This document shows, one piece after another, positions 2,950-23,380 of a stretch of DNA of 64,000 nt. Within the stretch, counting starts at the first letter, position 1. Each line of letters opens with the position of its first letter. The DNA is taken from the NCBI GenBank assembly GCA_018238155.1, contig JABCTZ010000036.1:397241-461240 (forward strand), in the 5' to 3' direction. A program made the translations under genes and the position numbers. Origin of the DNA: Candidatus Heimdallarchaeota archaeon (GTDB lineage: Archaea > Asgardarchaeota > Heimdallarchaeia > JABLTI01). The notes below the pieces were generated by a model. It was not told where the DNA came from. It saw only the letters and a program-made list of their open reading frames with translations, and did no database searches.

Positions 2950-3301
2950 TTTTTCACCTTACAACAAAAATATACTATGTCTTTCCAATAATTATTCTCT
3001 AATGTAATTAAAAAAATAGCGGTTGCGTATTTAAACTCAAAACATCAGATTAACCATTCAGACAAAAAATAAAATAGACGGTTTGTTGGACTTGTACTAA
3101 TTATGCCAAATTTCTAACACTTCTAGTTGATATCATTGTGAGTGAGCTATGTTCGTATATAATAATAGAATCCGATGTAGTTTTGATATTCAAGAAATAA
3201 TCTTACTATGTTTCACAAGAATATCATACTCGATGGAGTCTATGCTAAACATCACATACTTGCAAACGATCTAGTTTAAGATAAGAATTGGTTATCCGTT
3301 G

Positions 3302-3784
3302 TTACTTAATGGTTGAATACTTTGTTAACATAGCATTATATCCTTGAATGCTTTCTTCAGCTATGGTACTATCTTCTAACCATGATTTTATGTGAACTAG
3401 TCGTGTTGCTATCCAGGAGAAATCTTCAACATCAAAAGCAAGAGCTAGTTCCCATTCGGTAGCTGTTAAATGAGCTTGGTTCACTTTTTCAGCTTCTGAA
3501 AAAAGTAGGTTTGCACTTATCTTAAACCCCATTTTTTTCAGTTCATTTAATTCAATAATTTCATGTATTAGTAACCACTTTGATTGTAAAACATTATCAA
3601 GTGTGATTGTATCTCCTGAAGGTGCTTCTCCTTCGAAATAATCAATTAATTCTTGAGTATAAATTTCTTCTATTAGATAACTGTTTTTCAATAGAAGTGT
3701 ACGAAAAAGATTAATTTTTTTCTGAATTTCAACAAGAGCATTTTTGTTGTTGAGATGATTTGAAGCTACCAATATTAACAACAA
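3302..3784 (-). CDS. Hypothetical protein (HExxE-like segment)
   Basis: 160-aa ORF containing LIHEIIE; start uncertain. Confidence 0.55.
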   Translation of the reverse strand: MLLILVASNHLNNKNALVEIQKKINLFRTLLLKNSYLIEEIYTQELIDYFEGEAPSGDTITLDNVLQSKWLLIHEIIELNELKKMGFKISANLLFSEAEKVNQAHLTATEWELALAFDVEDFSWIATRLVHIKSWLEDSTIAEESIQGYNAMLTKYSTIK

Positions 3785-4008: not shown

Positions 4009-5118
4009 GTGAGAATAAAATTGACTGAGAAGAAACGATATTCTTTATTGTGCCCACATTGTAAGGATAACATCGCATTTGAATTAAGTGTAGAAGAATT
4101 AGAAAAAAGCTATTCTGGAGAAACGGCAAAAATATCTCTCGCAACACATGGAAGCCCTGAACATACTGTAGATGTTTATATTGATCGTGATGGGCTAATA
4201 CGTTCTGCTTTTGCAAATTTCGCTTCAATTGAAACCAAGGTTTCTCTACAGAATACCTATATTACAGATGCAACAAGTGAACTCAATCCTCAAGAAGGAC
4301 TAGCAATTGGAGTCAAAGTTGTCCCTTATACTGTTACTATTGGTGATAGCTCACCGAAAAAATATAATGAAGAAGTATTTTTTTCGGAAGTTTACGATGG
4401 GTTGAAATCTGATAAAAGAGTTAAAAGTCAACCTGTTTCTGTTGAGTCATTTTTAGAAGCTTTCAAAACATCTCCACGCGATAAGCCTGTGATTACTGTA
4501 ACTGTTAGTATGAAGTACAGTGAAGGATATGCTAACGCTGTCAAAGCTAAGAAAATCCTCGCAAAGGAAGACCCCTCTTTTGCCAAAAATATCCACATTG
4601 TTGATTCAAAAACAACTGGGCCAATGATGAAATTAATGGTGAAAAAAGCTCTTTCTTTGGATGAAGAAGGGCAAAGTGTCTCTGAAATAATTGAATACTT
4701 GAATTGGATACGCGAAAAACATTTAACTTATATTTATGTTGATTCATTGAGTGCTCTTCGAAAAAGCGAACGTGTTGGTCGTGTGACATCATTTTTTGGT
4801 AATTTACTTGGTTTAAAACCTGTCATTATTGAGAATGAAAACAATAATGGAGAACTTAAACCTTTTAAAACTGTTCGTAGTAAGAAAGCTGCTATTAAAG
4901 AAATTGTTAAAGCAATTAGAGAACAATTTGGTTATGTAGAACTTGTTGGAGTAATTATTTATGGTATCATTATTGATGATGCATTAGAAATGCAAGAGAT
5001 GCTTAAAGAAGATTCAAGAACTGAAGATAATGACTTTACAATGGATTTCATTGGTACTGGAGTCGCAATGCATCTGAGCTATGATGTTCTTGGTATCTCT
5101 CTCTATCCTAAATTATGA
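4009..5118 (+). CDS. degV: DegV/FakB-family fatty-acid-binding protein with N-terminal CxxC...H...H domain
   Basis: YITDATSEL, KSQPVS, TVSMKYSEGYANA, IHIVDSK, RVG...GNLLGLKPVI, IGTGVAMH are DegV hallmarks; about 80 extra N-terminal residues contain CPHC. Confidence 0.85.
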   Translation: MRIKLTEKKRYSLLCPHCKDNIAFELSVEELEKSYSGETAKISLATHGSPEHTVDVYIDRDGLIRSAFANFASIETKVSLQNTYITDATSELNPQEGLAIGVKVVPYTVTIGDSSPKKYNEEVFFSEVYDGLKSDKRVKSQPVSVESFLEAFKTSPRDKPVITVTVSMKYSEGYANAVKAKKILAKEDPSFAKNIHIVDSKTTGPMMKLMVKKALSLDEEGQSVSEIIEYLNWIREKHLTYIYVDSLSALRKSERVGRVTSFFGNLLGLKPVIIENENNNGELKPFKTVRSKKAAIKEIVKAIREQFGYVELVGVIIYGIIIDDALEMQEMLKEDSRTEDNDFTMDFIGTGVAMHLSYDVLGISLYPKL

Positions 5119-5558: not shown

Positions 5559-6722
5559 TTAAACTTTTCGTCGAGAGATACGTATAAATTCCTCAGTATC
5601 ACCACATACAGGGCAACCTTTTTCCTTTAACACTTCAATATTTTTTGTTTCCAATGTTAACCCTACTTCTGTGATATGTCCATTTTTACATTGATATTCT
5701 CTAATAGTGGGATTTAATTCACCCGTATAGATCTTCCCACTAAAATCTAAAGTGATCAATGATTTTGAGCTATCAGTTGTCGATAAAATACTGATATAAG
5801 TGGTGTTTCCGTGCATTTCAGCACCTTCATATAAATTGAAACCCGGTATTAATTGTTGAATTGCTAATCCTAGTTTTGTTAATGAGTTTTGAACTTCTAA
5901 TTGTATTTTAGGTGGGCGATGAGCATAAGCTAGGTAGATCTTTCTTCCTGATTCATCTTTTAACCCTTGAATTGCTCTGGAAAGAAATAATTCTAATCCG
6001 GGAATAGTGTACGGTGGATCTGTAAGAACTACATCAAATCTATTCGTCAAATCTTCAGCAAGCGATTTACGTAAATCATGTGTTACACAATTAATATGGA
6101 AATTGTTTTCTTCTGAGATTTCTTTTATCACTTTTAACAATCTGGTATCAATATCTAAAACAGTGATTTTTGCATTTGTTTTTAGCTGAGCAATTGCTAG
6201 AGATGTAAAATCATCATCTCCAATTAATAGTATCTCTCTACCTTCAAGATCATTGTTTTCTAACATCAAATAAGCTCGGCGAATTGCTGTTATTGGTCTA
6301 CCAAAAGCTTGATCAATTTCTGTTTGAGGTTTTGGTCTTCGCTCAGAAAAGATTCTTTGTTTAGCAATCAATTTTTCAGCTTCATGTGGGAGTGCAAGAC
6401 CGGTACTGTCACATTTTTTACAGCTGTGGCTTTCAAGGTAATTAATGCCTAATACATCATTAACAAAAATTAATCCTCTTTTGGTTAAAATAGCCCCTTT
6501 TTTTTCACGACTAATTAAATTAACTTTTTCTAATTCTTTTCTTATTGCAGCTATAGTTGGTATGGGCATTTTTATCTTTCTTGAGAGGCTTTTGGTTCCG
6601 ATTGTACCACTAAGGAAAATTTCACGTAAAATGGCTCTAATTGCTTCCTTTCCTTCAAATACATTTGCTTTTTCAGCGATTTCATTTAATACTTCATCAG
6701 GATCATTAGTAATATTTGACAT
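5559..6722 (-). CDS. bpsA: Branched-chain polyamine synthase (N4-bis(aminopropyl)spermidine synthase) family
   Basis: RP....DQ, LEGREILLIGDDDFTSLA, LDIDTR, HDLR and TDPPYT..G..LFLSR motifs; N-terminal wHTH plus CxxC and a C-terminal zinc ribbon; adjacent to speD. Confidence 0.85.
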   Translation of the reverse strand: MSNITNDPDEVLNEIAEKANVFEGKEAIRAILREIFLSGTIGTKSLSRKIKMPIPTIAAIRKELEKVNLISREKKGAILTKRGLIFVNDVLGINYLESHSCKKCDSTGLALPHEAEKLIAKQRIFSERRPKPQTEIDQAFGRPITAIRRAYLMLENNDLEGREILLIGDDDFTSLAIAQLKTNAKITVLDIDTRLLKVIKEISEENNFHINCVTHDLRKSLAEDLTNRFDVVLTDPPYTIPGLELFLSRAIQGLKDESGRKIYLAYAHRPPKIQLEVQNSLTKLGLAIQQLIPGFNLYEGAEMHGNTTYISILSTTDSSKSLITLDFSGKIYTGELNPTIREYQCKNGHITEVGLTLETKNIEVLKEKGCPVCGDTEEFIRISRRKV

Positions 6723-7296: not shown

Positions 7297-8052
7297 ATGA
7301 GCACTATTGAAAATGAAATTTTGACATTTGATGAAGTTATATCCACTCAAGAGTTAGCAATGAAATATATTCGTGAACGAAAAAAAACTCATGGTTTAGT
7401 TCTAACTGCAACAAAACAAACAGGTGGACAAGGACGATTAGAGCGTAGTTGGTCATCTCCTATTGGTGGGCTCTGGATGACTACAATATATCAATGTAAA
7501 ACACCTCTAGCTCAATTTGAAGGTTTTTCAGTTCGTTTGGGTTTGGAAATGATCAAGGATTTTGAGAATTCAATTCCATTAAAATTTCAAATTAAATGGC
7601 CAAATGACTTGATAGTAAACAAGAAAAAAGTAGGTGGGATTTTGATTAATACACGAATAAAAGAAGATATTCTGACCGAACTCATAATTGGCATTGGTAT
7701 CAATATTAATAATCAAACAGAAACATTACCTCCCGAAGTAGCATCAATTGCTACATCAATGAGTGAAAACATGCTCGATAAGATTTCTATTAGTTCAGTT
7801 CAACACATTGTTCTTACAGCACAGAATAGGTTATTCCAAAATGTAGAAAGAAATGAGTTAGAAGATATTGCAGATATTTGGACCAAGAAATCTCTCAGTT
7901 ATCAGAAAACTATTCGAGTAGTTACTCGAGAAGAAACATTGACCGGCGTAGAGCAAGGAATTACTGAAAATGGTAGCTTAATTCTGAAAACAAATTCGAA
8001 TGAATTAAAAACAGTTTCTATAGGAGATATTGAATTGCTGAGAATAAAATAA
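7297..8052 (+). CDS. birA: Biotin--[acyl-CoA carboxylase] ligase (no HTH)
   Basis: QTGGQGRLERSWSSP, IKWPNDL, KKVGGIL, IGIGININ; GGAGA RBS. Confidence 0.95.
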   Translation: MSTIENEILTFDEVISTQELAMKYIRERKKTHGLVLTATKQTGGQGRLERSWSSPIGGLWMTTIYQCKTPLAQFEGFSVRLGLEMIKDFENSIPLKFQIKWPNDLIVNKKKVGGILINTRIKEDILTELIIGIGININNQTETLPPEVASIATSMSENMLDKISISSVQHIVLTAQNRLFQNVERNELEDIADIWTKKSLSYQKTIRVVTREETLTGVEQGITENGSLILKTNSNELKTVSIGDIELLRIK

Positions 8053-8076: not shown

Positions 8077-8838
8077 CTACGCTTCAATTAATTGATTAAC
8101 AAAAAATTCTCGTAATGCAACGAATGTTTCATGACGAGCTTGGGGGTTCGTAAGATTGTGATCAGCATTTGGAATGATTTTAAATGCTTTTGGATTAAAT
8201 GCTTTAGAGAAAAGATGTCTCATACCTTTCATTGGCATAAAACTATCTTTTGAACCTGTAATAATCAGCAATGGTCTTGGTGAAATTCGATTAACACATC
8301 TTAATGGATTATTTCCTCGAATATCATTTTGCAATTTTTCCTTTACACCTGTTGCAGCTGTACGAACTAATCCTGATGCGGTTAATCCATCCCAGAGAGC
8401 ATCAAAGTGAGGATAATTCACAACAAAATCGAAATCGAATAGTGGTGCTTGTAAAGCAACTATTGCTACTCTTGGATCTCTCGATGCATGACATGTTACT
8501 AATGCTCCTCCCAGACTCACTCCATATAATCCGATTCTCATTGGATTTACTTTTGGATGATTTGCTAAAAAGGAAATTACATAATCCAAGTTTTGGAGTG
8601 AAGCATGGATTGTCGTTTCTCCTTTACTTTTGTAAAAACCTGATAAATGAAATACAAAATAAGCTATTCCGTTATCAGTTAAAAGTGATGCAAGAGCTTC
8701 TTCTTTAGCGAATTCATTTGAAACCAACCCATGAACTTTACAGACCACAGGATATTTCTTTCTATCATCATCTGGAAAGAAGAACGCAGCACTTATTGTG
8801 CTATTATAGTAATCGATCATTAATTCTTCTTTTTTCAT
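8077..8838 (-). CDS. Alpha/beta hydrolase (candidate thioesterase/esterase)
   Basis: HG oxyanion segment, GVSLG nucleophile, GSKD acid and NADH His; 14 nt downstream of accB on the same strand. Confidence 0.85.
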   Translation of the reverse strand: MKKEELMIDYYNSTISAAFFFPDDDRKKYPVVCKVHGLVSNEFAKEEALASLLTDNGIAYFVFHLSGFYKSKGETTIHASLQNLDYVISFLANHPKVNPMRIGLYGVSLGGALVTCHASRDPRVAIVALQAPLFDFDFVVNYPHFDALWDGLTASGLVRTAATGVKEKLQNDIRGNNPLRCVNRISPRPLLIITGSKDSFMPMKGMRHLFSKAFNPKAFKIIPNADHNLTNPQARHETFVALREFFVNQLIEA

Positions 8839-8852
8839 TTTTTGTTTATCTC

Positions 8853-9344
8853 CTATTTTTCTTTATTTTGAATTGGTTTTACTTTTATCATCAATTGCCT
8901 AGCTACTACTTGATCACCGGTATTCACTAGAATTTTATCTACGATACCATTAATTGGTGAAAGAATTTCATTTCTCATTTTCATAGATTCGAGAATAAGT
9001 AGGCATTGTTGATCACTTACAACATCCCCAATTTTGACTTTTACATCAACTATTTTCCCAGGGATAGCTGCTTTGATATCTGCTTGTCTCTTTTGTTGAA
9101 CTCCTTTCTTCAATTGTATTGTAGGTGAATGTCGAAAATCGAAATCTATTTCTTTGCCATCAAGAAAAATAACATTGTCTTTGAATTCAATTCTGAATTC
9201 ATGACCACTCACAAATACTTTATAGAATTTGCCATTAAAGATGACTTCAGGAGTAAAACTATAATTTTCTACGATTATTTTTTTATCGGTTTTTTCTAAT
9301 TCTAAATTAATACCATTTAGAGATATTTTGTACCTGTTTTCCAT
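8853..9344 (-). CDS. accB: Biotin carboxyl carrier protein
   Basis: IKAAIPGKIV...LESMKMRNEILSPING biotinyl-Lys motif; overlaps the accC stop codon. Confidence 0.95.
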   Translation of the reverse strand: MENRYKISLNGINLELEKTDKKIIVENYSFTPEVIFNGKFYKVFVSGHEFRIEFKDNVIFLDGKEIDFDFRHSPTIQLKKGVQQKRQADIKAAIPGKIVDVKVKIGDVVSDQQCLLILESMKMRNEILSPINGIVDKILVNTGDQVVARQLMIKVKPIQNKEK

Positions 9345-10819
9345 TAGTAATCTCTCCTAATTGCGTCTAGTCTTCCTTTCATTCGCCATTGGTTCGATTG
9401 ATCTGGAAGGTTTGTTTCATTCTTCCTCATCCCTACGGCGAATAAAGCACTTGCTTGTAAACAGATACGTTTTTTTAATTTCTCAAGGATATTTCGCTCT
9501 TCAATAAATTTAATGCTTATATCCCCTGATTTGAATTTTTCATCATTAAATAACTCTTCAAAAAATGGTATGTTGGTTGCAAAACCAAGGATAGATAATT
9601 CCTTTAGAGCCATTTTAGCTCGAACTATCGCTTCTTCTCGTGTCTCATCTGCAACAATCAGTTTTCCTATTAATGAATCATAACAATCTGGGATAGTAAA
9701 TCCTTCATATATTGCAGTATCAAAACGAACTTGTGGTCCTCCTGGTGCAGTGAATTTCCTGACTCGTCCTGGAGTCGGGCGGAAATCCAATAAAGGATCT
9801 TCTGCATTGATCCTTAACTCCATTGCATGACCCCTAAATTTAATATCAGATTGTTTAAAGGATAAATGTTCTCCTTTAGCAATTCTAATTTGTTCTTTAA
9901 CAATGTCTTTTCCAGTTAACATCTCTGTGACAGGGTGTTCGACTTGAATTCTTGGGTTCACTTCATTGAAAAGGATATTACTATCCTTTAAGAGGAATTC
10001 AACAGTCCCTGCATTTCTGTATTTTACTCGTCGAGCTAATTTACAGACTAATCTTCCAATTCTTTTTCGCTCATCATGAGAAATTACTGTTGAAGGTGCT
10101 TCTTCAAGCAATTTCTGATTTCTGCGCTGAATAGAACATTCTCTTTCTCCCAAATGAACTACTTTGCCATAGTTATCAGCAATAATTTGGAATTCAATAT
10201 GTCTAGGATGTTCTAAGAATTTTTCTAAAAATACTTCACCACGTCCAAAAGCAGCTTCTGCTTGAGCACTTGCACTTGCAATCGCAGGATGCAACTCCTT
10301 GGCATTTTCTGCTTTTTGTATGCCCATTCCACCACCACCATAGACAGCTTTTACTAGAATAGGATAACCAATTCTTCTCGCTTCGCGATTAGCATGATTT
10401 TCATTTCGAATAATATCTGAACCAGGAGGTACTGTTAAGCCTACTCTTCTAGCTAAATCTCGAGACTTTACTTTATTTCCTAAAAGCTCAATAACCTCAG
10501 GAGGTGGTCCAACATAGACTATTCCTTCTGCAATGAGTTTCTTAGCAAACATTTCGCTTTCAGAAAGAAACCCATAGCCTGGATGAACACTTTCAATATT
10601 TAATCTATTACAAATAGCAAAAATTTGGTCTATGTCCAAATAACCCGGTTGGTCATTAAATTCTTCTAATTCTATTGCCTCATCTGCAAGTTTAACATGA
10701 AGGGCATTTTTATCTACAGAAGTATAAATTGCGTAAGTTTTTACACCGAGCTCTCTTGCGGCTCGAATAATGCGTATAGCAATTTCACCTCTATTTGCAA
10801 CTAACAGACTACTGAACAT
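9344..10819 (-). CDS. accC: Biotin carboxylase subunit
   Basis: LVANRGEIA, HPGYGFLSE, GGGGMG, ERECSIQRRNQK, EVNPRIQVEHPVTE, RINAEDP, YDSLIGKLI. Confidence 0.97.
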   Translation of the reverse strand: MFSSLLVANRGEIAIRIIRAARELGVKTYAIYTSVDKNALHVKLADEAIELEEFNDQPGYLDIDQIFAICNRLNIESVHPGYGFLSESEMFAKKLIAEGIVYVGPPPEVIELLGNKVKSRDLARRVGLTVPPGSDIIRNENHANREARRIGYPILVKAVYGGGGMGIQKAENAKELHPAIASASAQAEAAFGRGEVFLEKFLEHPRHIEFQIIADNYGKVVHLGERECSIQRRNQKLLEEAPSTVISHDERKRIGRLVCKLARRVKYRNAGTVEFLLKDSNILFNEVNPRIQVEHPVTEMLTGKDIVKEQIRIAKGEHLSFKQSDIKFRGHAMELRINAEDPLLDFRPTPGRVRKFTAPGGPQVRFDTAIYEGFTIPDCYDSLIGKLIVADETREEAIVRAKMALKELSILGFATNIPFFEELFNDEKFKSGDISIKFIEERNILEKLKKRICLQASALFAVGMRKNETNLPDQSNQWRMKGRLDAIRRDY

Positions 10820-10860: not shown

Positions 10861-10991
10861 ATTTTTACTGTAAAATGATTCAATTTGTTTATCTAGAAAG
10901 CAAATTTTACTGTAATATACAGTATATTTTTTATATAGCTTATTCTGATTGTAAACTACACAGTTTGGCACATTGTACTGTGTAACAGGAG
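10861..10991. promoter_or_regulatory. Divergent accC / carboxyltransferase-synthase promoter region with palindrome TACTGTA-N3-TACAGTA
   Basis: Perfect 7-3-7 inverted repeat at 10908-10924; TACTGT half-sites also at 10866 and 10977; TTTATATA TATA-like box near 10930. Confidence 0.5.
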
Positions 10992-10999
10992 ATTTGGCA

Positions 11000-12598
11000 A
11001 TGAATCTGAACACAGAGCTTGGCACGCAAAAAGATATGATAAAAAAATCCAATTCGGAAAAAAAGAATGAGGAATTATTAGAAAAACGCGAAGAAGCTCT
11101 TATGGGTGGAGGGCAAAAAGCTATTGATAAGCAATCGGAGAAAGGTAAGCTTACTGCTCGACAAAGAGTGGAGTTACTACTTGATCCAGGTACTTTTTCT
11201 GAAACAAATATGTTCGTCCGACATAATTGTAGCAATTTCAACCTAGAAAAAAAGAAATTTTATACTGATGGAGTCGTCACAGGATTCGGACAAGTAAATG
11301 GGAAGTTAGTTTATGTGTACAGTCAAGATTTTACTATACTAGGAGGAAGTCTTGGTGAAGCACAAGCCAAAAAAATCGCTTACACAATGGATCAAGCTCT
11401 TCAAAATGGTGCTCCATTGATTGGATTCAATGATTCCGGTGGAGCTCGAATCCAAGAAGGAGCTAATTCATTAGCAGGATATGGTGACATTTTCATAAGA
11501 AATGTCCGTGCATCGGGTGTCATTCCTCAAATTTCTTGTATGGTTGGTCCCTCTGCAGGAGGAGCTGTTTATTCTCCCGCACTTACAGATTTCGTCATTA
11601 TGACAGAAGATACCTCTTACATGTTCGTAACAGGTCCTTCAGTTGTTAAAGCTGTTACAGGAGAAGATGCAACTTTTGAGGAACTAGGCGGAGCATCTAT
11701 CCATAGTGCAAATTCTGGTATAGCACATTTAACAGGTTCAGATGAAATCGAATCTATTGAATTTATCAAATTGCTTCTATCCTATCTTCCTTCAAATAAT
11801 CTCGAAGATCCTCCAATAAAAAAAATTACTGTTACAAATGATGCTGATCTTGAGTGCTTAAACAGTGTCATTCCTGAAGACCCTCAAATTCCTTATGATG
11901 TTCGTGAGATTATTTTAAGAGTAGTCGATAAAGGTAATTTTCTTGAGATTCAGAAAAAATGGGCTCAGAATATCATTGTTGGTTTTAGCCGATTAAATGG
12001 ATATCCAATTGGTATTGTAGCTAATCAACCAAATAATCTCGCTGGAGCACTTGATATAAATGCCTCTTCAAAAGCTGCCAGATTCATACGATTCTGTGAT
12101 GCATTTAATATTCCAATTATTTCTTTTGTAGATGTTCCCGGCTTCTTGCCTGGATTAGATCAAGAACACAACGGTATCATTAAACATGGTGCAAAATTAA
12201 TCTATGCTTACGCTGAAGCAACTGTTCCTAAATTAACAGTTATTACTCGAAAGGCATATGGTGGTGCTTACATTGTTATGGGCTCAAAACATTTAGCCAC
12301 CGACATGAATTTTGCCTGGCCATCTGCAGAAATTGCCGTTATGGGTGCAGAAGGAGCAGTACAAGTTCTTTATAGAAGGGATTTAGCTAAATCAGATGAC
12401 AAAGAAACCTTACTTGAAGAATTGAAAAATGAATTCATTGAGGAATTCAATAACCCCTATTTAGCTGCAGAAAAAGGATACATCGATGATGTTATCTTGC
12501 CAAGTGAAACAAGAAGAAAACTCATTGCAGCACTTTGGCCCCTACTCAGGAAGAGAGATAAACTTCCAAACAAAAAACATGGAAATGTACCTCTTTAG
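11000..12598 (+). CDS. pccB: Acyl-CoA carboxylase carboxyltransferase subunit (PccB/AccD-type)
   Basis: GKLTARQR, QDFTILGGSLG, DSGGARIQEG, GPSAGGAVYSPALTDF, DVPGFLPG, RKAYGGAY, KKHGNVPL. Start moved to the ATG at 11000, which follows AGGAGA. Confidence 0.95.
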   Translation: MNLNTELGTQKDMIKKSNSEKKNEELLEKREEALMGGGQKAIDKQSEKGKLTARQRVELLLDPGTFSETNMFVRHNCSNFNLEKKKFYTDGVVTGFGQVNGKLVYVYSQDFTILGGSLGEAQAKKIAYTMDQALQNGAPLIGFNDSGGARIQEGANSLAGYGDIFIRNVRASGVIPQISCMVGPSAGGAVYSPALTDFVIMTEDTSYMFVTGPSVVKAVTGEDATFEELGGASIHSANSGIAHLTGSDEIESIEFIKLLLSYLPSNNLEDPPIKKITVTNDADLECLNSVIPEDPQIPYDVREIILRVVDKGNFLEIQKKWAQNIIVGFSRLNGYPIGIVANQPNNLAGALDINASSKAARFIRFCDAFNIPIISFVDVPGFLPGLDQEHNGIIKHGAKLIYAYAEATVPKLTVITRKAYGGAYIVMGSKHLATDMNFAWPSAEIAVMGAEGAVQVLYRRDLAKSDDKETLLEELKNEFIEEFNNPYLAAEKGYIDDVILPSETRRKLIAALWPLLRKRDKLPNKKHGNVPL

Positions 12599-12655: not shown

Positions 12656-15600
12656 ATGGTTGCTGATACAAGATTTAATCAAATAATGGAAAATAAAAAA
12701 CCGATATTGGCATTTAATCCTTTAGGACTCAATGATCTAGGATTAGTAAAAGCAGTAAACAAAGCAGGTGGCATAGGTTTAATTAATCTTGAACGTATGA
12801 CAGCTCAAGGATACCAAGCAATATTAATAAAATGCTTGTCAGAAATTACAAATATTGTTGGAATTCGAGTAGTAAATAAAGATCAATTGAATTTCATTTT
12901 GGAACACTCCTCAAAACAACAAAGTTTGATACTCATTATTGCTGATGTTTCTCTAAGCAAAGAGCAAATAAAATTGGCAAAAGAAAAAAGAATGTCACTT
13001 ATTGCAGAAGTTATTTCATTAGAAGAAGCTTATGATAAAAAGTGGGCTGATGTTTTTCTATTAAAAGGTGCAGAAGCTGGCGGAAGAGTTAGTGATGAAA
13101 CTTCCTTCATTCTTACTCAGCAATTTGCAGAGGCTGGACTTGAATTCATTGTTCAAGGTGGAGTCGGTATTTATACTACTCCAGCACTCTTTGCTGCTGG
13201 AGCTAAAGCTGTTGTGCTTGATACACAATTGTATACTATGCCTGAATGCCCCTTATCAAAGGAAGTAAAAGATTTTCTTGTTAAACTTGATGCAACTGAT
13301 ACAAAAATTATTGGTGATTCAACAAGTTACAAATACAGAGTATATGCTCGCTTAGCAACAAAAATCGTTAAAGATTTTATCAAGATTGAGAAAGATCTTC
13401 TTGGTTTATCTCTTGAAGAGCGGACAAAGAAAATTAAACAAAAAATAGAAGATGAGAAGGAATCTTTCAATAGCCCTACTTTAGCTAATTGTCTGCTACC
13501 AATAGGTCAAGATGTTTCTTTTATTAACATCTTTTCAAAGAGATTTTCATCTGTGGAAGAAGTTTTTGACGGTCTTCTTGAACAAACTAAAAAACAAATC
13601 AAAAATACTCTTGATAATTATCCTTTCAAAAGTGGTTCTGATTTAGCAAAAGATTTGGGAATAAAATATCCCTTAATTCAAGGTCCAATGGCTAATATTT
13701 CCGAAAGCCCTGAATTTGCCAAAATCATTGCAGAAGAAGGAGCTCTTCCTATTCTTGCTCTTGGTTCTCTGTTCAAAAACCAATCCAGAAATTTAATCAA
13801 GAAAACTAAGGAAACATTAGGCTCTCTTCCGTTTGGTTGTGGAATCATTGGTTTAGATGCTAATGCTACTGCTCGAGATAACCATTTAGTGATAATTAAA
13901 GAAATACAACCATCATTGGTTGTTGTAGCTGCTGGAACAATTGATTTAGCAAAGGAAGTTATGAGTTATGGTGACATTAAGACTTTCTTACATTCACCCT
14001 CTCCCTTGATTTTTTCAGAAGCAATTGAAACTGATGTTAGATACTTGGTTCTAGAAGGTATGGAATGTGGTGGCCATATTGGTATTTTAACTAGTTTTGT
14101 TTTATGGGAACTATCCCTACATCAACTAGTACGATTACAAGATAAAATAAAAGCAAGTGGAAAGAAGATCAATGTAGCTTTTGCTGGTGGCATTGGAGAT
14201 CGATTTTCTGCTGCAATGGTTGCAGTTATTGCGTCAGCTTTACCTGACCTAATGAACAGTGCACTATGGGTAGGTACAGCTTATATTCTTACAGAAGAAA
14301 TTGTTGATACTGGTGCAGTAAAACCTCTTTATAGAGAACAAGCATTAGATGCTAAAGAAACAGTTCTTCTTGGTGAGACTGTAAGCATTCGAGCCAGAAC
14401 AATTCCAACACCATATGCTAAAGTTATTGTTGAACGAGAACTAGAACGAATAAAGGACGGTATAAGTCTCAAAGAACGTAAACATCTCTTCGAAAGAGAT
14501 AATCTGGGTTCAACTCGTATAGCTGCATTAGGTGAAATTTGGAATCCTGATGGAGAAGATGATAAACCAAATAGATTTGTACCAATTGATGAAAAAGGTC
14601 AATACGAAAAAGGAAATTATATGATAGGTCAGATAGTTGGTAGTTTACGAAGTATTCGTACTGTAAAGGATCTTCATATGGAATTAATTGAAGAGTCAAA
14701 AAGAGTTGTTAGTACCAAAGGAAAAAGTATTACCAAACAATTTGAAGCTAAAGATGATTCTGTTAAAACAATTAATTCGCAAATTGAACATGATCATACA
14801 AGTCCAATACCTGATGATATCCCTCATGGTGAGGGTGTTGCAATTGTTGGTTTAGGTGGAATCTTTCCAGATGCATTAAATATTGATCAATATTGGAAAA
14901 ATATTACTTTAGGACTTTATTCAGTAAAAGAAATACCAAAAGAAAGATGGTCCAATGACCTTAGCCTCTTTTATTCTCCTGACCCATTTGAACCCGATAA
15001 AACATATGCGAAAATTGCTGCAACAATTGATGATTTCAAATTCAATTCATTGGAATTTAAAATACCTCCAAAAGTTGCTCTAAGGATGGATCGCGTTCAG
15101 CAATTCGCTTTGGTAGCTGCAAAAGAAGCTCTAATTGATGCCAATATTTTAGATAAAGATAATTCAAACACAGCTGTTATTATTGGAAACAGTATGGGTG
15201 GAGAGATTCGAGTGGATTACAATAGAAGAATTTTCTTACCTGAAACCTATCGTTCTTTGGAAAAATGTGCTTCTTTTAGTAATATTGACAAAGGTGTTTG
15301 GAAGAAAGTCAAAGAAGAATTAAAAGTGATTTATGACAGCGATCTTTTGTCAATAAATGAGGACTCGATGCCTGGAGAATTATCTAATGTAATTGCAGGT
15401 CGAGTAGCCAATGTCTTCAATCTTCGAGGTAAAAGTATGACCTGTGATGCTGCTTGTGCATCAAGTTTAGCTGCTTTGAATATCTCCGTTAAAGGATTAC
15501 TAGATAATGAGTACGATGTTGTTCTTTGTGGTGGATCAGATTGTTCATTAGATGCGTCCATTTTTGTTAAATTTGCAAAAATTGGTGCAATCTCTGCAGA

Positions 15601-18600
15601 AGGTTCATATCCATTTGATAAAAGAGCAAATGGTTTTGTAATGGGTGAAGGTGCTGGGTTTGTTGTTCTTAAACGTCTTTCTGATGCAGAAAGAGATGGT
15701 GATAAAATTTATGCTGTTATTCGAGGATTAGGCGCAGCAAGTGATGGAAAAGGTAAAGGTATCACAGCACCAAATCCAATAGGACAAAAACTAGCCATTC
15801 AAAGAGCATTAGATCAAGCAGGAGTAACCTTCCCTGACATACAATTTATCGAAGCTCATGGAACTGCTACTGGTGTAGGTGATGTTGTTGAAATGGCTGT
15901 TTTGAATGAGATGGCAGAAAACACGCCCAAATCATCAATAGTCATTAGCTCAGTTAAAAGTCAAATAGGTCATCTAAAAAGTGCTGCGGGAATTGCTTCT
16001 ACAATCAAAACTGCTCTGGCACTTTACCATAAAAAATTCCCTCCAACAGCCAATTTCAAATATCCAAATCCAAAAGTTGCCTGGGAAACTTCACCATTTT
16101 ATGTTACAACTGAAGTAAAGGATTGGCCTCAACCAGTTTCTGGTCATCGAATTGCAGGAATATCTTCTTTTGGTTTTGGTGGAACAAACTTTCATGCTAT
16201 TATGGAAGAATATATTCCTGGAGAAACCATTGGTCATCTACCTAAATTATTTACAAAAGAAGAATTGGACTCATTAGTTTTACGTGTTAGTCAAATGGCT
16301 TTACATTCTGGTGATGGGCAAGGTTTCACAACTGTGTTTGATGAAGCATCCTGGGAGAATTTTTACAACGAAAATATAGTATTAGAAACAGAACCCCTCT
16401 TTGTAGGAGGAACCTCAGATGCAGCCTTACTTAAAAATTTGAAAGCATTAAAAACAAAAATACCCAAGAGTACTTTTGCTTTGAATGGAACAGGGACTCG
16501 TATACATGATTTTAGTCAAGAAACAATGTCTGCTCTTTCTCAGAAGAAAAGAATAGGTATTGTATCAAAATCATTAGACGATTTACCTTCTCTAATTGAT
16601 TCTGCAATATCTGGACAACAAGATAAAGCTAAGAGATTGATATTAAGAAATAAAGGAATATTCTATGGAGAAGATCACTCTCTTGGAAAAATTGCTTTTA
16701 TGTTTCCAGGGCAAGGTAGTCAATATGTTAGGATGGGCAAAGAGCTCTGGGATAAGTATGATATTGTAAAAGAAGCTTTTAAAGAAGCTGATGAAGTAAC
16801 TCAAACCGAACTTGGTTTCTCCCTTACAGAGATAATTTTTGCTATAGGAAAAGATGATGCAGAAGCAAAAGCATTACTGAGAAAAACAGAAGTAACGCAA
16901 CCGGCAATCTTTGCTGTTAATATAGGCATTTACCGGTTATTGCGTTCATTTGGTATAAAACCTGATTTTGTTGCTGGACATAGTTTAGGAGAATATGCAG
17001 CACTTGTTGCTTCAGGGATTGTTAGTTTCAAAGATGGCTTAATGGCTGTAATTCCTCGTGGAAAAGCAATGTCTCTTTTTGAATCAGATGATAATGGAAT
17101 GATGGCTTCAGTAAGCTCTGATGCTGAAACAATAGAAGAAGTTTTGAAAAGTGTGAAAGGTTATGTTATTGCTGCTAATAAAAATACTCCAAGTCAAACA
17201 GTAATATCCGGAGCATCTCCTGCAATAAAAGAAGCAATCAAGATTTTCATAGAAAAAGGTATTACTGCAATTCCTTTACCCGTTTCCGCAGCATTTCATT
17301 CAGAAATAGTTGCTCCCGCAGAAAAATTCCTAAGAGAATCGTTAGAAAAGCTTACCTTTAACAAACCTTCAATTGCTCTTTCAAGCAATGTTACAGGAGG
17401 TATATATCCTGAAACAAGGCAAGAAATTATTGATCTACTTTGTAAACAAGTGTATTCTCCTGTTGAATGGATGAAACAAATTGAAAATATGTATGAGGAA
17501 TATGGAGTAAGAACCTTCATTGAAATAGGACCAAAATACGTTCTAACAAGTTTTGCTAAATCTGTTCTTAACGATAAGAAAGACTTTGTAGCTCTTGCAT
17601 CAAACCATCCAAAGAGAGGAGCTATGCAACATCTCAATGAAGTGTTGGCTGCTCTTGGTGCTTTTGGCTATCCTCTCAAAATTCCTAATAAGGATGATTC
17701 TATTTACAGTGAAGAGTTTAGAAATCCAACAAAGAGATTCTTCAAGAGGAAGGCAATTTCAATCCCGTCAATTGCTCCTTCAACTAGTACACCTAAGGTT
17801 ATTACTAAAGAATCTCCCTTTGATGTATTAGCTTTTGGTGATTTGGCTTCGATAACAAAAAATGATGATTTTAACGACTACTTAGAATTACAAGCACCAG
17901 CTATCAATGCATTTCTTAAAGCAGGTTATGATACATACCAGAATATAATCGCAAAAGCATTAGAGACTAAAAAAGAAATAGACAGGCTGAACATTAATAC
18001 AGATGCTGTTGGAGTTACAGGCATTGCAATCGGGTTGCCGGGTAAAAATCGCAAGGTATTCGATGATTCTAATTTCGATGCAATCCTCTCTGGTCAGAAT
18101 TTCATAGAAAAAACCTCCGTTCAATTGAGAGAAAAGATAGTTGAAAAGAATATAGTACGACTAGTGAAAGATGCTGTTAAAGGAGCACAATTCCAATCAA
18201 TAACTGATGTAAGTGAAGTTATTAAACTTGCAGCTCAAAAAGGAGAGTTTGATCTTACAAAAGATTATGGTGTACAAGCAGAATTTACAGAGATTTTTGA
18301 TGTAACATTTCAATTAGCATTAGCCGCTGGAATTGAAGCACTTAAAGATGCCGGCATTCCATTAATGCCTTTGAAAATTAAAACATCTGTTGGAAAAGAA
18401 ATCTCCAAAGGTTGGGTATTGCCGGAATCAATGAGAGATGAAACAGGTATTGTTTTCGCTTCTGCTTTTCCTGCAAGTAACAATCTAATTTCAATTGTAT
18501 CTCAATCCCTTGCAGATAAATATGCATCAAAGCATAAGGACGAAACAATTTTACTTTTCGATGAATTAATTCAACAAATATCAAATAAAACCTCAAGAGA

Positions 18601-21600
18601 AAATGTGACAAAGTGGTTTGAAAAGAATAAAGCCTCACTTGCTGGTGATAAGAAATCGAAATACCAGTTCAGTCGGAAATTCTTATTCGAAGTTCTTTCA
18701 ATGGGTCATTCTCAATTTGCTCAATTTATTCGAGCACGAGGACCAAATACTCAAGTAAATGCTGCTTGCTCTTCAACAACACTTGCTATTGGCATTGCTG
18801 AAGATTGGATTCGAAATGGTCGATGCAAACGAGTAATTGTCATCGCAGCAGATGATATAACAAGTGATGAAACGTTCCAATGGTTTGGTTCAGGATTCTT
18901 AGCAGTTGGAGCAGCAACAACTTCTGAAATAGTGGAAGAAGCTGCTTTACCATTCGATAACAGAAGACACGGAATGATTGTTGGAATGGGAGCTGTCGGT
19001 ATAGTTTTGGAATCAGAATCAACAATGAATGAAAGAGGGATAAAACCAATTGTTGACTTGATGGGAACGCATCTTGTAAATTCAGCATTCCATGGAACAC
19101 GATTGGATCGTGATCATATTTCATCTCAAATGAGTGATTTCATTGGAAAAATGGAGAAAAGATTTAATGTCTCAAGAGATGATATTGCGAAACAATTAGT
19201 TTTTGTTAGTCATGAAACCTATACACCTGCTCGTGGTGGAAGTGCTTCTGCGGAAATAGACGCTCTACGAAAAACTTTTGGTGCTTCGTTAGATAAAGTC
19301 GTTATTGCTAACACAAAAGGATTCACAGGTCACGCTATGGGAGCAGGAATAGAAGATGTTGTTGCAGTCAAGATGCTCCAAGAAGGAATTATTCCTCCTG
19401 TAGCAAACTTCAAAGAAGTAGATCCTGAATTAGGTGTCCTTAATCTTTCAAAGGGTGGAAAATATAATATCAAATATGCTTTGCGTTTTTCAGCTGGTTT
19501 TGGTTCACAATTAGCAATGGTTTTGTATCGTTTGAATACAGCTAGTGGACGATTTGACAGCAAGGATTATGATCGCTGGTTAGCAACAATTGGTGGTAGT
19601 CGTTCTACTATGAAGATTTCTAATAATACATTGAGAATGACTGAAGATCCTAATATAGCAAAAACATTACTTTCCACTCCAACTCCACGCTCCTCTGTTG
19701 TTTCTGCTTCTAATAGTGAAGTTGTTACAATGATTATCTCATTGTTATCTGAGAAAACAGGTTACCCTGCAGATATGATTGAAGCCGATATGCATCTTGA
19801 AGAAGATCTTGGCATTGATACTGTTAAGCAAGCAGAATTATTTGGTATGTTGCGTACACAATATAATTTACCTCGTGAGGAAGGAGTTAGAATTCAAGAT
19901 TATTATTCAGTAAACAAAATTGCTGAATATCTTGCTACTAAGATGGACCCTGTAGCTTCCACTTCTGTTGTTGCCGGAACATCTTCAATTCCGATCAGTG
20001 AAATTACTAAAGTGATTATTGACCTTGTTTCTGAAAAAACTGGTTATCCACAAGACATGTTAGAAGCTGACATGGAACTTGAAGAAGACCTTGGTATTGA
20101 TACTGTTAAACAAGCAGAAATTTTTGGTATTCTTCGTACAAAATGGGATTTACCTCGAGAAGAAGGAATTCGAATTCAAGAATACTCAACAATTACTAAG
20201 ATTGCAAAGTATGTTTCAGATAGAATTGCAAGTTCATCTGGAGCTTCAGCAAGCACTTCAAGTCAACCATCTAAGAAACCACTCGAAAAAGTTCCTGCTC
20301 AAAGAATGCAATTACAATTAATACCTTCTCAAATTAAGACAAAAGGTTTAGATCTCAAACAGAAGCAGTTCATTGTAGTTGGTGATAATAACATCTTTAC
20401 TAAAGATATTGTTTCAATTCTGGAGAAGAAAAAAGCTCGAGTTGTGAAAACAATCAACTTAAAGTCTATGAAATCGCTTGATAAACTCAAAGCAGCATTA
20501 CCTAAAGAACAAGTTGATGGTTTAGTTTTCATCGCTCCAAAGACAACAGTTCAGACAAAACATGATCTTGTTGCACGAAGCTTTTTCATTTGCTGTCGAT
20601 ATTTATCCTTTAATGAGAAGCCAATTGTTTTATCTATAGATAATCTATCCGAGAATCTCGGTTGGAAACAAATAAAATCCAACCCTATTGTTGGCTCATT
20701 AACTGGCTTTACTAAAGCACTTGCTCGAGAGTTTGTTGGAGGTACTGTTAAATTTGTTAGCTGCCAAAAACCAAAGCAAGCAATTGATGAGTTATGTACT
20801 GGTGATGGCTCTGTAGAAGTACTATACAATTCTGCAGGAAAACGTCAAATATTCATCACAACTGTAGAGGAATTGGAAGAAGCTAAAGAGAAATATAAAC
20901 CAACTAAAGATGATTTGATAGTTATTACCGGTGGTGCACAGGGAATAACTTTTGAAATCAGTAAGAAAATAGCTGAAAAATATCAAGCAAAATTGGCATT
21001 ATTTGGTCGGACAAAAATTCCAAGGAATATCAAAGAACTACTTGCATTGGATGAAGCCGGCTTAACTGAGCTCAAAAATGCTATGGTTGCCAAAATGAAA
21101 GAGACAGATGACAGAGTCACACCTGTTAAAATTGAGAAAGCTTGGTCAAAAACAGCAAAAGCTATTGCTATACAGAAAGGAGTGCAAGAACTTGTATCCT
21201 TGGGTTCAAAAGCAAAGTATTATTCTGTTGATGTTGTTGACACAGAGAAAATGAAGAAAATTCTACTAAAAGTTACTTCAGATTTCAAAACTTCAATAAC
21301 AGGTATAGTGCATGGTGCCGGCTTGGAAGTTTCTAAATACATTGCTGACAAAGAGCTCACTGATTTCAATCAAGTCTACAACGTTAAAGCAATTGGGTAT
21401 GATAATTTAATCAATAATATTGATTTGAAGAAAATTCAATTCATCATTTGTTTCTCCTCTGTTGCAGGACGATATGGAAATGGTGGACAAGTAGATTATT
21501 CTGCTGCAAATGATTATCTCTCAAAGAGTTGCTGGAATCTAAGAGCGAAGGGTATACGTGCAACCTCTATTTGTTGGACTGCTTGGGCAGAAGTAGGAAT

Positions 21601-23380: not shown

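Follow-up and report, generated by a model that had tools for sequence, protein, structure and literature searches.

A probable iterative fatty-acyl synthase of the Type R lineage, fused on one chain with its own phosphopantetheinyl transferase, in a Heimdall-group Asgard archaeon

What does a single gene carrying the parts of a complete reductive fatty-acid cycle do in an Asgard archaeon? The window analyzed here is a stretch of 64,000 nucleotides from Candidatus Heimdallarchaeota archaeon (assembly GCA_018238155.1, contig JABCTZ010000036.1, positions 397,241 to 461,240 of the forward strand), in which an open reading frame (ORF) check found one intact frame at 12656..23380 (+), with 3,574 codons and no interruption. 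We consider it likely that this gene encodes an iterative, carrier-dependent type I fatty-acyl synthase, the most fused form of the lineage known as Type R, and that it is resident in its Heimdall-group host. To our knowledge, archaea are generally described as being without fatty-acid synthesis that depends on acyl carrier protein (ACP). The features of the locus are collected in Table 1.

The domain order was read from Pfam scans of the full-length protein and of nine pieces of it. From the N terminus the scans found an NMO match of 35.8 bits at amino acids (aa) 94-267, here called E0, and a second NMO match of 58 bits at aa ~412-680, the enoyl reductase (ER). These are followed by the first ketosynthase (KS1; ketoacyl-synt, Ketoacyl-synt_C and KAsynt_C_assoc at aa 726-1187), an acyltransferase (AT; Acyl_transf_1 at aa 1348-1643), a second ketosynthase (KS2; ketoacyl-synt/ACP_syn_III/Ketoacyl-synt_C at aa ~2005-2253) and two PP-binding stretches. 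The C-terminal part carries a ketoreductase (KR, aa 2756-2979), a dehydratase (DH) matched by PS-DH at 28.5 bits and by PKS_DH_N under its cut-off at 21.9 bits (aa 3056-3314), and a phosphopantetheinyl transferase (PPTase; 4PPT_N and ACPS at aa 3380-3537). Among NCBIfam models run on the full protein PfaA came out on top, at 945.2 bits and thus below its curated cut-off of 1010.1, with partial matches to FabD-like (250 bits), FabK-like (122 bits) and HetI-like (52 bits) models. Judged over ~70-120 homologous copies per domain, the six catalytic domain types were all shown to carry active sites that are intact and conserved at the level of sequence. A previous reading of the window, made from its letters alone (the sequence-only reading), had placed KS, AT, KR, DH, ER, ACP and PPTase on one chain, in the domain order just given. 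Profile matches, conserved motifs and two confident structure models bear it out; the ER, DH and PPTase assignments, on whose failure it would have fallen, all found their profiles, and those of ER and DH are backed by the structure models as well. It had also noted the lack of a thioesterase or terminal reductase, and neither family was found in the Pfam scans of the full-length protein or its pieces.

The two N-terminal domains pair an altered reductase with an intact one. E0 aligned by sequence to FabK (2z6i) at aa 5-248, spanning the whole barrel; it carries R144 in the column of the catalytic His, and its FMN motif QGPMA is degenerate. Across 51 homologs this column holds R, M, L, K, I, W or E and in none of them His. 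By its residues E0 is catalytically dead yet conserved, a pseudo-reductase, as the sequence-only reading had proposed for the first domain. Of the aligned ER homologs, 46/46 keep the catalytic His and 45/45 keep QGPMA. In a model of the E0-ER di-domain (719 residues; predicted local distance difference test, pLDDT, 92; predicted template modelling score 0.93) the two are packed as one rigid unit. The modelled ER (326-695) superposed on FabK with Z 38.8 and a root-mean-square deviation (rmsd) of 2.0 Å over 305 of 310 residues, on PfaD with Z ~35 and rmsd 3.1, and on the ER of fungal and mycobacterial fatty-acid synthase (FAS) with Z 28-32. A PfaD-type ER was rejected in favor of a FabK type given the better structural match and the FabK-like NCBIfam match. 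Because its score lies under the FabK equivalog cut-off of 453 bits, the ER is FabK-like and no FabK ortholog. Free-standing E0-ER proteins were not found, the shorter matches being contig-end fragments or E0-ER still joined to a KS.

KS1 retains the Cys-His-His triad, and so does KS2, in 120/120 copies and with H2186 lying in an invariant SHETY motif; the nearest solved relative of KS2 is FabF (85 bits). The 2011 survey of secondary-lipid synthases labels the second KS of Type R "CLF" (PMC3098273). We rejected KS2 as a Cys-less chain-length factor (CLF), given the conservation of its triad in all copies. The AT has the malonyl-type motifs GHSLGE and AFHS. Stand-alone KS2-like ORFs of ~500-570 aa, 45-50% identical to KS2, were also observed in some genomes of the same class.

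Predicted as a complex, KS1 and KS2 scored 0.76 against 0.00 for the best control, the runs sharing at least 82% of contacts with partner pLDDT of at least 79; among solved complexes 58 of 80 attain this mark, among mismatched pairs 2 of 110, and since KS-KS and KS-CLF dimers have already been solved the score shows likeness only and may reflect those known structures. The predicted interface is centered on the segments flanking both active-site Cys, which is the canonical KS interface. ER domains work as dimers, and a thraustochytrid ER heterodimer has been solved (PMC13311796). Given that both domains that normally homodimerize in FAS and polyketide synthases (PKS) occur here as tandem pairs with one diverged member, we propose that intramolecular pseudo-dimers, E0 with ER and KS1 with KS2, are probably a design principle of this protein.

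The remaining steps of the reductive loop are assigned to KR and DH. The DH has an invariant His (H3076) within HxxxGxxxxP plus the ExxxQ acid, and its model (pLDDT 94) adopts the PKS double-hotdog dehydratase fold (Z 28.7, rmsd 2.5-2.6 Å over ~265 residues). Since KR, DH and ER appear intact and no FabA-type isomerase is present, the expected product is an acyl chain that is fully saturated or nearly so.

Mapping of the domains over 120 homologs revealed a graded series. The bacterial proteins are built as KS-AT-KS2-ACPn-KR-DH; those of Thermoplasmatota and Kariarchaeaceae carry this core with a fused PPTase; and the remaining Asgard forms (~35 proteins) carry the core, the fused PPTase and the N-terminal E0-ER. 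A permuted layout with the ACPs before KS2 (E0-ER-KS-AT-ACP3-KS2-KR-DH-PPTase) is found in Bradymonadales (P0088, P0093, P0097 and P0104, including Lujinxingia vulgaris). A tree built from the shared core groups these states tightly, requiring 12 changes where shuffled labels require 60; this is a FastTree tree with a midpoint root, its rows sampled as top matches to our protein, and neither donor nor direction of transfer was inferred from it. Type R was described by Shulse & Allen (2011, PLoS One 6:e20146; PMC3098273) as a secondary-lipid synthase with one pfaA homolog (KS-MAT-CLF-ACP(3-6)-KR) and, behind it, a PPTase gene and in some cases an acetyl-CoA carboxylase (ACC) gene, found in Acidobacteria, Elusimicrobia and Chloroflexi (Koribacter, Solibacter, Elusimicrobium, Roseiflexus), its product uncharacterized. 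In our comparison an Elusimicrobium locus (L011) shows this layout, with a synthase, a separate ACPS gene and a carboxyltransferase. Elusimicrobium and Elusimicrobiaceae homologs lie within the family tree, among whose rows Koribacter, Solibacter, Roseiflexus and E. minutum do not occur. On the sequence evidence the synthase is best read as the fully fused form of the Type R lineage, its core an ancestral single gene to which E0-ER and PPTase were added. The sequence-only reading had taken it for an independent fusion of Pfa-type parts, which does not hold: the bacterial core KS-AT-KS-ACPn-KR-DH already exists as a single gene and only E0-ER and PPTase are additions. The identical layout, seen in the ~35 Asgard proteins of the domain mapping and in 57 of 301 sampled genomes of the host phylum, makes it a conserved family trait and not a one-off.

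The genes around the synthase would supply its substrate. A carboxyltransferase (CT) precedes it and adjoins it also in the Hod (L007), Loki (L009), Thermoplasmatota (L010) and Elusimicrobium loci. The genes for biotin carboxylase (BC), biotin carboxyl carrier protein (BCCP), an alpha/beta-hydrolase and a BirA-like ligase stay with the synthase in Heimdall (L005, on a 930-kb contig), Hod and Loki despite rearranged gene order, and CT, BC and BCCP accompany it in the Thermoplasmatota locus. The triad of the hydrolase is retained in its Heimdall, Hod and Loki orthologs.

Across the host genome (4.08 Mb in 46 contigs, 90.7% complete, with an archaeal small-subunit (SSU) rRNA) there are 11 DegV and 6 PlsY paralogs, several as adjacent pairs. 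A PlsY-DegV-FakA-like trio lies on contig C6 (2778-5560 (-) of L030, C6:61000-69500), adjoining an EMG1/NEP1 gene; its FakA-like member has Dak2 and FakA_M domains and is only 330 aa long. PlsX was not found in this 90.7%-complete genome. PlsX takes acyl-ACP, and the FakA/DegV system starts from free fatty acid, so that FakA, DegV and PlsY without PlsX point to a path from free fatty acid over acyl-phosphate to acyl-glycerol-phosphate. A GpsA-type match was marginal (25.9 bits). In the same genome no family match to PcrB/GGGPS was obtained; as a side observation, two UbiA-family prenyltransferases are present despite this absence, which is odd for an archaeon.

Does the synthase make bulk membrane fatty acid, or a specialized secondary lipid or polyketide, for instance a very-long-chain, hydroxylated or partly unsaturated envelope or glycolipid product that passes straight to another enzyme? 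Its family was set up as one of secondary-lipid synthases with uncharacterized products, and those relatives that the survey gives as characterized produce the tails of heterocyst glycolipids or phenolic lipids (PMC3098273). Two KS and tandem ACPs are typical of such systems, and the protein has no thioesterase domain. The distribution is also patchy. Within the host phylum 57/301 sampled genomes carry the gene, with 0/21 in sister family f4, 0/76 in f11, 5/68 in f14 and a patchy presence elsewhere. It is present, on the other hand, in all genomes sampled from the host's own family (10/10; 9/9 for the genus) and in 25/29 and 10/11 of two sister families, which is near-universal, and PlsY in turn is universal in these same families. 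Furthermore, the complete KR-DH-ER loop with its intact sites predicts saturated chains, the synthase is the sole KS/ACP system of a genome with six PlsY, 11 DegV and FakA, and the conserved cluster (window, Heimdall, Hod and Loki loci) contains no glycosyltransferase, type III PKS or other tailoring gene. Taking both sides together, we regard a specialized product as unlikely.

Both ACPs of the synthase read LGIDTV, with Thr in place of the usual phosphopantetheine Ser of the GxDS motif. Could these carriers be dead or otherwise modified, and the enzyme inactive or using substrates bound to CoA or pantetheine? E. coli ACP mutants with Ser changed to Thr are poor AcpS substrates, the PP-binding scores of the two ACPs in a genome-wide scan are low (24 and 19 bits), and a literature search of incomplete coverage gave no account of Thr-linked phosphopantetheine. 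Against this, Thr occupies the attachment column in virtually all of the 2-6 tandem ACPs across ~120 archaeal and bacterial homologs. Ser is found there only rarely (P0053, and the first ACP only of P0062, P0085 and P0118), and such an exchange of Thr and Ser within one column would be expected were the hydroxyl the group that matters. The remaining catalytic sites are strongly conserved, and members throughout the family have a fused or neighboring PPTase whose Mg- and CoA-binding motifs are intact: over 71 copies the metal ligand D is found in 71/71, E in 69/71 and the K..E..K of W/FxxKExxxK in 71/71. Its GKP and VSITH, also conserved, correspond to the motifs P1a, x(G/D)xP, and P1b', hShxH, the latter assigned to secondary-lipid synthases of Types M-T (PMC3098273). 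We therefore give the idea of unprimed carriers little credence. The genome-wide scan further showed that PP-binding domains and an ACPS domain are found in the host genome only in the megasynthase ORF, as are KS domains barring one weak thiolase-like match. Because the sole PPTase and the sole ACPs sit on this ORF, the PPTase would have no substrate other than the ACPs of its own chain. This exclusivity is the best support at hand for self-priming, and self-activation of the synthase by its own PPTase, which the sequence-only reading had inferred, is plausible even with Thr as the acceptor, though uncertain for that reason.

The host is a metagenome-assembled genome (MAG), in which the contig carrying the window is 461 kb long. 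About 30 kb around the synthase are syntenic with the 930-kb Heimdall contig, Arf-family GTPase genes stand beside the Loki (GC14_75) and Hod copies, and three single-contig genomes (G026, G074 and G213) contain the gene. The synthase has a GC content of 0.34-0.37 as compared with 0.30-0.36 elsewhere in the window. Its full-length homologs of 54-63% identity are labelled Heimdallarchaeota/Asgard, and those of 41-45% Heimdallarchaeaceae, Promethearchaeota/Lokiarchaeum and Hodarchaeota; bacterial members of the family come from Elusimicrobia, Saprospiraceae, Bradymonadales and Spirochaetota. Two close full-length homologs, P0004 and P0006, are labelled as Zixibacteria and Bathyarchaeia MAGs; they nest within the Heimdall clade, and their contigs are probably mis-binned. 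That the synthase came into the MAG as bacterial contamination, or is a passenger acquired by recent transfer, and plays no working part in archaeal metabolism is barely conceivable, in spite of those bacterial members, the two labels and an estimated contamination of 5.9%, given the long contig and its synteny, the Arf GTPases, the gene's presence in all sampled genomes of its own family and in single-contig genomes, a GC content like that of the window and the coherent clades formed by the Asgard copies. Contamination in particular is very unlikely because of the archaeal SSU rRNA, the long contig, the synteny, the Arf neighbors and the universality of the gene in its own family.

Returning to the iterative fatty-acyl synthase, we envisage the following pathway. 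Malonyl-CoA would come from the adjacent BC, BCCP, CT and BirA, and the Sfp-type PPTase would prime the two ACPs on the conserved Thr, in cis or between copies. The AT would load malonyl, KS1 and KS2 would condense, and KR, DH and ER would fully reduce the chain in each round. With no thioesterase domain present, free fatty acid would most likely be released by the linked Ser-Asp-His hydrolase; alternatively, the AT might off-load the chain to CoA. FakA with DegV would convert the free fatty acid to acyl-phosphate for the six PlsY, yielding acyl-glycerol-phosphate. All steps after chain synthesis we infer. In its fullest form the proposal makes the synthase the de novo source of fatty acid for ester-type acyl-glycerol-phosphate lipids by way of hydrolase, FakA/DegV and PlsY, carrying Thr-linked phosphopantetheine set by its own PPTase and using the internal pairs E0:ER and KS1:KS2 instead of a homodimer; taken as a whole, this is possible and somewhat doubtful.

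A number of points weigh against this picture. The literature search yielded no biochemistry or expression results for any member of the family, a look-up of sequencing runs listed none, RNA included, and the host is a MAG with the contamination estimate given above. With Thr at the phosphopantetheine position of both ACPs priming is uncertain, and we know of no description of Thr-linked phosphopantetheine. Release by the hydrolase we infer from gene linkage; its nearest solved relatives are small generic esterases (58 bits), and the bacterial and Thermoplasmatota loci are without it. A scan of the 90.7%-complete genome for a PlsC-type acyltransferase gave no match, which leaves a full diacyl-lipid pathway in doubt, and PlsY is far commoner than the synthase (40/68 vs 5/68 in f14), making the link between them a loose one. 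Finally, a KS1:KS2 heterodimer and a pair of homodimers, KS1:KS1 and KS2:KS2, are not distinguished by the predicted complex.

Some further genes were observed near the synthase. A tetratricopeptide repeat (TPR) protein of 615 aa is encoded just downstream (23499-25346 (+)); its ortholog in the syntenic Heimdall locus (L005:20911-22764) is 68% identical as compared with 59% for the synthase. The TPR protein was dropped as a candidate conserved regulator of the cluster, having no detectable similarity to the helix-turn-helix-TPR proteins near the Hod copy. A homolog of DegV (FakB-like, fatty-acid-binding) with an N-terminal extension of ~84 residues lies 7.5 kb upstream (4009-5118 (+)), and the equivalent position in L005 is without it. 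Also upstream of the cluster is a BpsA_C branched-chain polyamine synthase gene (5559-6722 (-)), which in L005 (2858-4431) is paired with an S-adenosylmethionine decarboxylase gene in conserved synteny.

Table 1. Coordinates of the synthase, its domains, linked genes and related ORFs (window positions unless a genome and contig are given).
Feature	Coordinates	Strand	Residues and motifs	Basis or remark
Megasynthase E0-ER-KS1-AT-KS2-ACP-ACP-(psiKR)KR-DH-PPTase	12656..23380	+		Pfam, NCBIfam, mapping onto homologs
E0, FabK-like pseudo-enoyl-reductase	12668..13615	+	aa ~5-320	NMO 35.8 bits; sequence alignment to FabK
ER, FabK-type FMN enoyl reductase	13631..14740	+	aa ~326-695; catalytic H474	NMO; motifs; Z 38.8 to FabK
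KS1 + KS-AT linker	14831..16216	+	aa 726-1187; C934, H1068, H1106	Pfam; motif conservation
Malonyl-type acyltransferase	16688..17605	+	aa ~1345-1650; GHSLGE with S1443, AAFHS	FabD 250 bits; Pfam
KS2, divergent, active-looking	18023..19555	+	aa ~1790-2300; C2038, H2186, H2226	Pfam; motif conservation
Two tandem ACPs	19718..20227	+	T2389 (19820-19822), T2483 (20102-20104)	Pfam; alignment; genome PP-binding scan
psi-KR + KR	20273..21610	+	aa ~2540-2985; Rossmann TGGAQGIT; Y2948, N2952	Pfam; motifs
PKS-type double-hotdog DH	21773..22645	+	aa ~3040-3330; H3076, ExxxQ acid E3240	Pfam; motifs; structure
Sfp-type PPTase	22694..23380	+	aa ~3347-3574; GKP, VSITH, D3455/E3457, WAAKEAVSK	HetI-like; Pfam; motifs
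Acyl-CoA carboxylase carboxyltransferase (CT)	10973..12598	+		Carboxyl_trans 644 bits; co-directional, ends 58 bp upstream of synthase
Biotin carboxylase (BC)	9344..10819	-		Kept in L005, L007, L009, L010
Biotin carboxyl carrier protein (BCCP)	8853..9344	-		Kept in L005, L007, L009, L010
Alpha/beta-hydrolase, candidate trans-acting release enzyme	8077..8838	-	Ser108-Asp198-His227 triad	Linked in L005, L007, L009
Biotin protein ligase (BirA-like)	7297..8052	+		Kept in L005, L007, L009
Extra KS2-like ORFs	G003:C1:136571-138265, G086:C12:45942-47576, G148:C190:9507-11066, G054:C8:519463-520443			TAA stops in two

The origin of the bacterial-type acyl-ester membranes of eukaryotes, the "lipid divide", is still debated. 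The locus bears on this question, as it holds a complete, self-contained and evidently selected fatty-acyl synthase with its own supply of malonyl-CoA among the archaea most closely related to eukaryotes, and the synthase may be the way in which these archaea make fatty acids. If so, the closest archaeal relatives of eukaryotes would have an endogenous, ACP-dependent route to acyl lipids of the bacterial and eukaryotic style. For enzymology, the interest lies in the Thr-type carriers, the conserved tandem of dead and live ER and the two active-looking ketosynthases per chain.

How does this protein compare with known systems? At the level of single domains, the ER shares with FabK (7l00, 2z6i, 5gvh) the TIM-barrel fold, the catalytic His and the FMN motif, whereas E0 is without the His; unlike FabK, the ER is part of a megasynthase chain, in which it follows its dead paralog. 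The predicted pairing of two differing thiolase-fold KS-like domains at the canonical interface is shared with the KS-CLF of type II PKS and of PfaC, but here both partners carry Cys-His-His and lie on one chain with the AT between them. The PPTase has features of the Sfp type: 4PPT_N and ACPS lobes, the D/E metal ligands and W/FxxKExxxK. The two carriers depart from the canonical ACP in having Thr for the Ser of GxDS.

Fungal FAS (alpha6beta6) shares with the synthase an FMN TIM-barrel ER (Z 28-32), a C-terminal PPTase acting in cis and the absence of a thioesterase domain. It differs in that the archaeal protein has a KS-AT linker, a psi-KR and a PKS double-hotdog DH, no malonyl/palmitoyl transferase, no split into two subunits and another domain order, and its ER is matched better by FabK than by the fungal ER. 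The sequence-only reading had seen convergence on the logic of fungal FAS-I; this stands for two traits only, the FMN-type ER and the C-terminal PPTase in cis. The domain order differs, as that reading had itself noted, and the scaffold is of the PfaA/PKS/animal-FAS type.

With PfaA and pfaABCDE (TIGR02813) the synthase has in common the order KS-AT...ACPn-KR-DH, tandem ACPs, an FMN-type ER and a dedicated Sfp-type PPTase. In contrast to these systems it scores under the PfaA cut-off (945.2 vs 1010.1), has a second KS between AT and ACPs, a FabK-like ER and Thr ACPs, and is accompanied by no PfaB, PfaC or FabA-type dehydratase/isomerase. As to a PfaC partner (KS-CLF with FabA-type DH/isomerase), no other KS was found in the 90.7%-complete genome and none in the neighborhood. 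Without PfaB, PfaC and a FabA-type dehydratase/isomerase, a cis-polyene route is not expected.

The closest known counterpart is Type R. Shared with it are KS-MAT-second KS-tandem ACPs-KR in one PfaA-like gene, an associated PPTase with x(G/D)xP and hShxH, and an associated acetyl-CoA-carboxylase gene. The archaeal synthase differs in having the PPTase fused at its C terminus and the pseudo-ER with the FabK-type ER at its N terminus, in carrying two ACPs where Type R has 3-6, in a "CLF" that retains Cys-His-His, in a PKS-type DH after the KR that is absent from the domain string of the survey, and in its archaeal host. The literature search, whose coverage was incomplete, brought up no description of an archaeal fused form, Thr carriers, an E0 pseudo-ER, an active second KS or a Type R product. 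Within the literature searched, the core class is thus catalogued in Shulse & Allen (2011) only, and the fully fused archaeal form is new.

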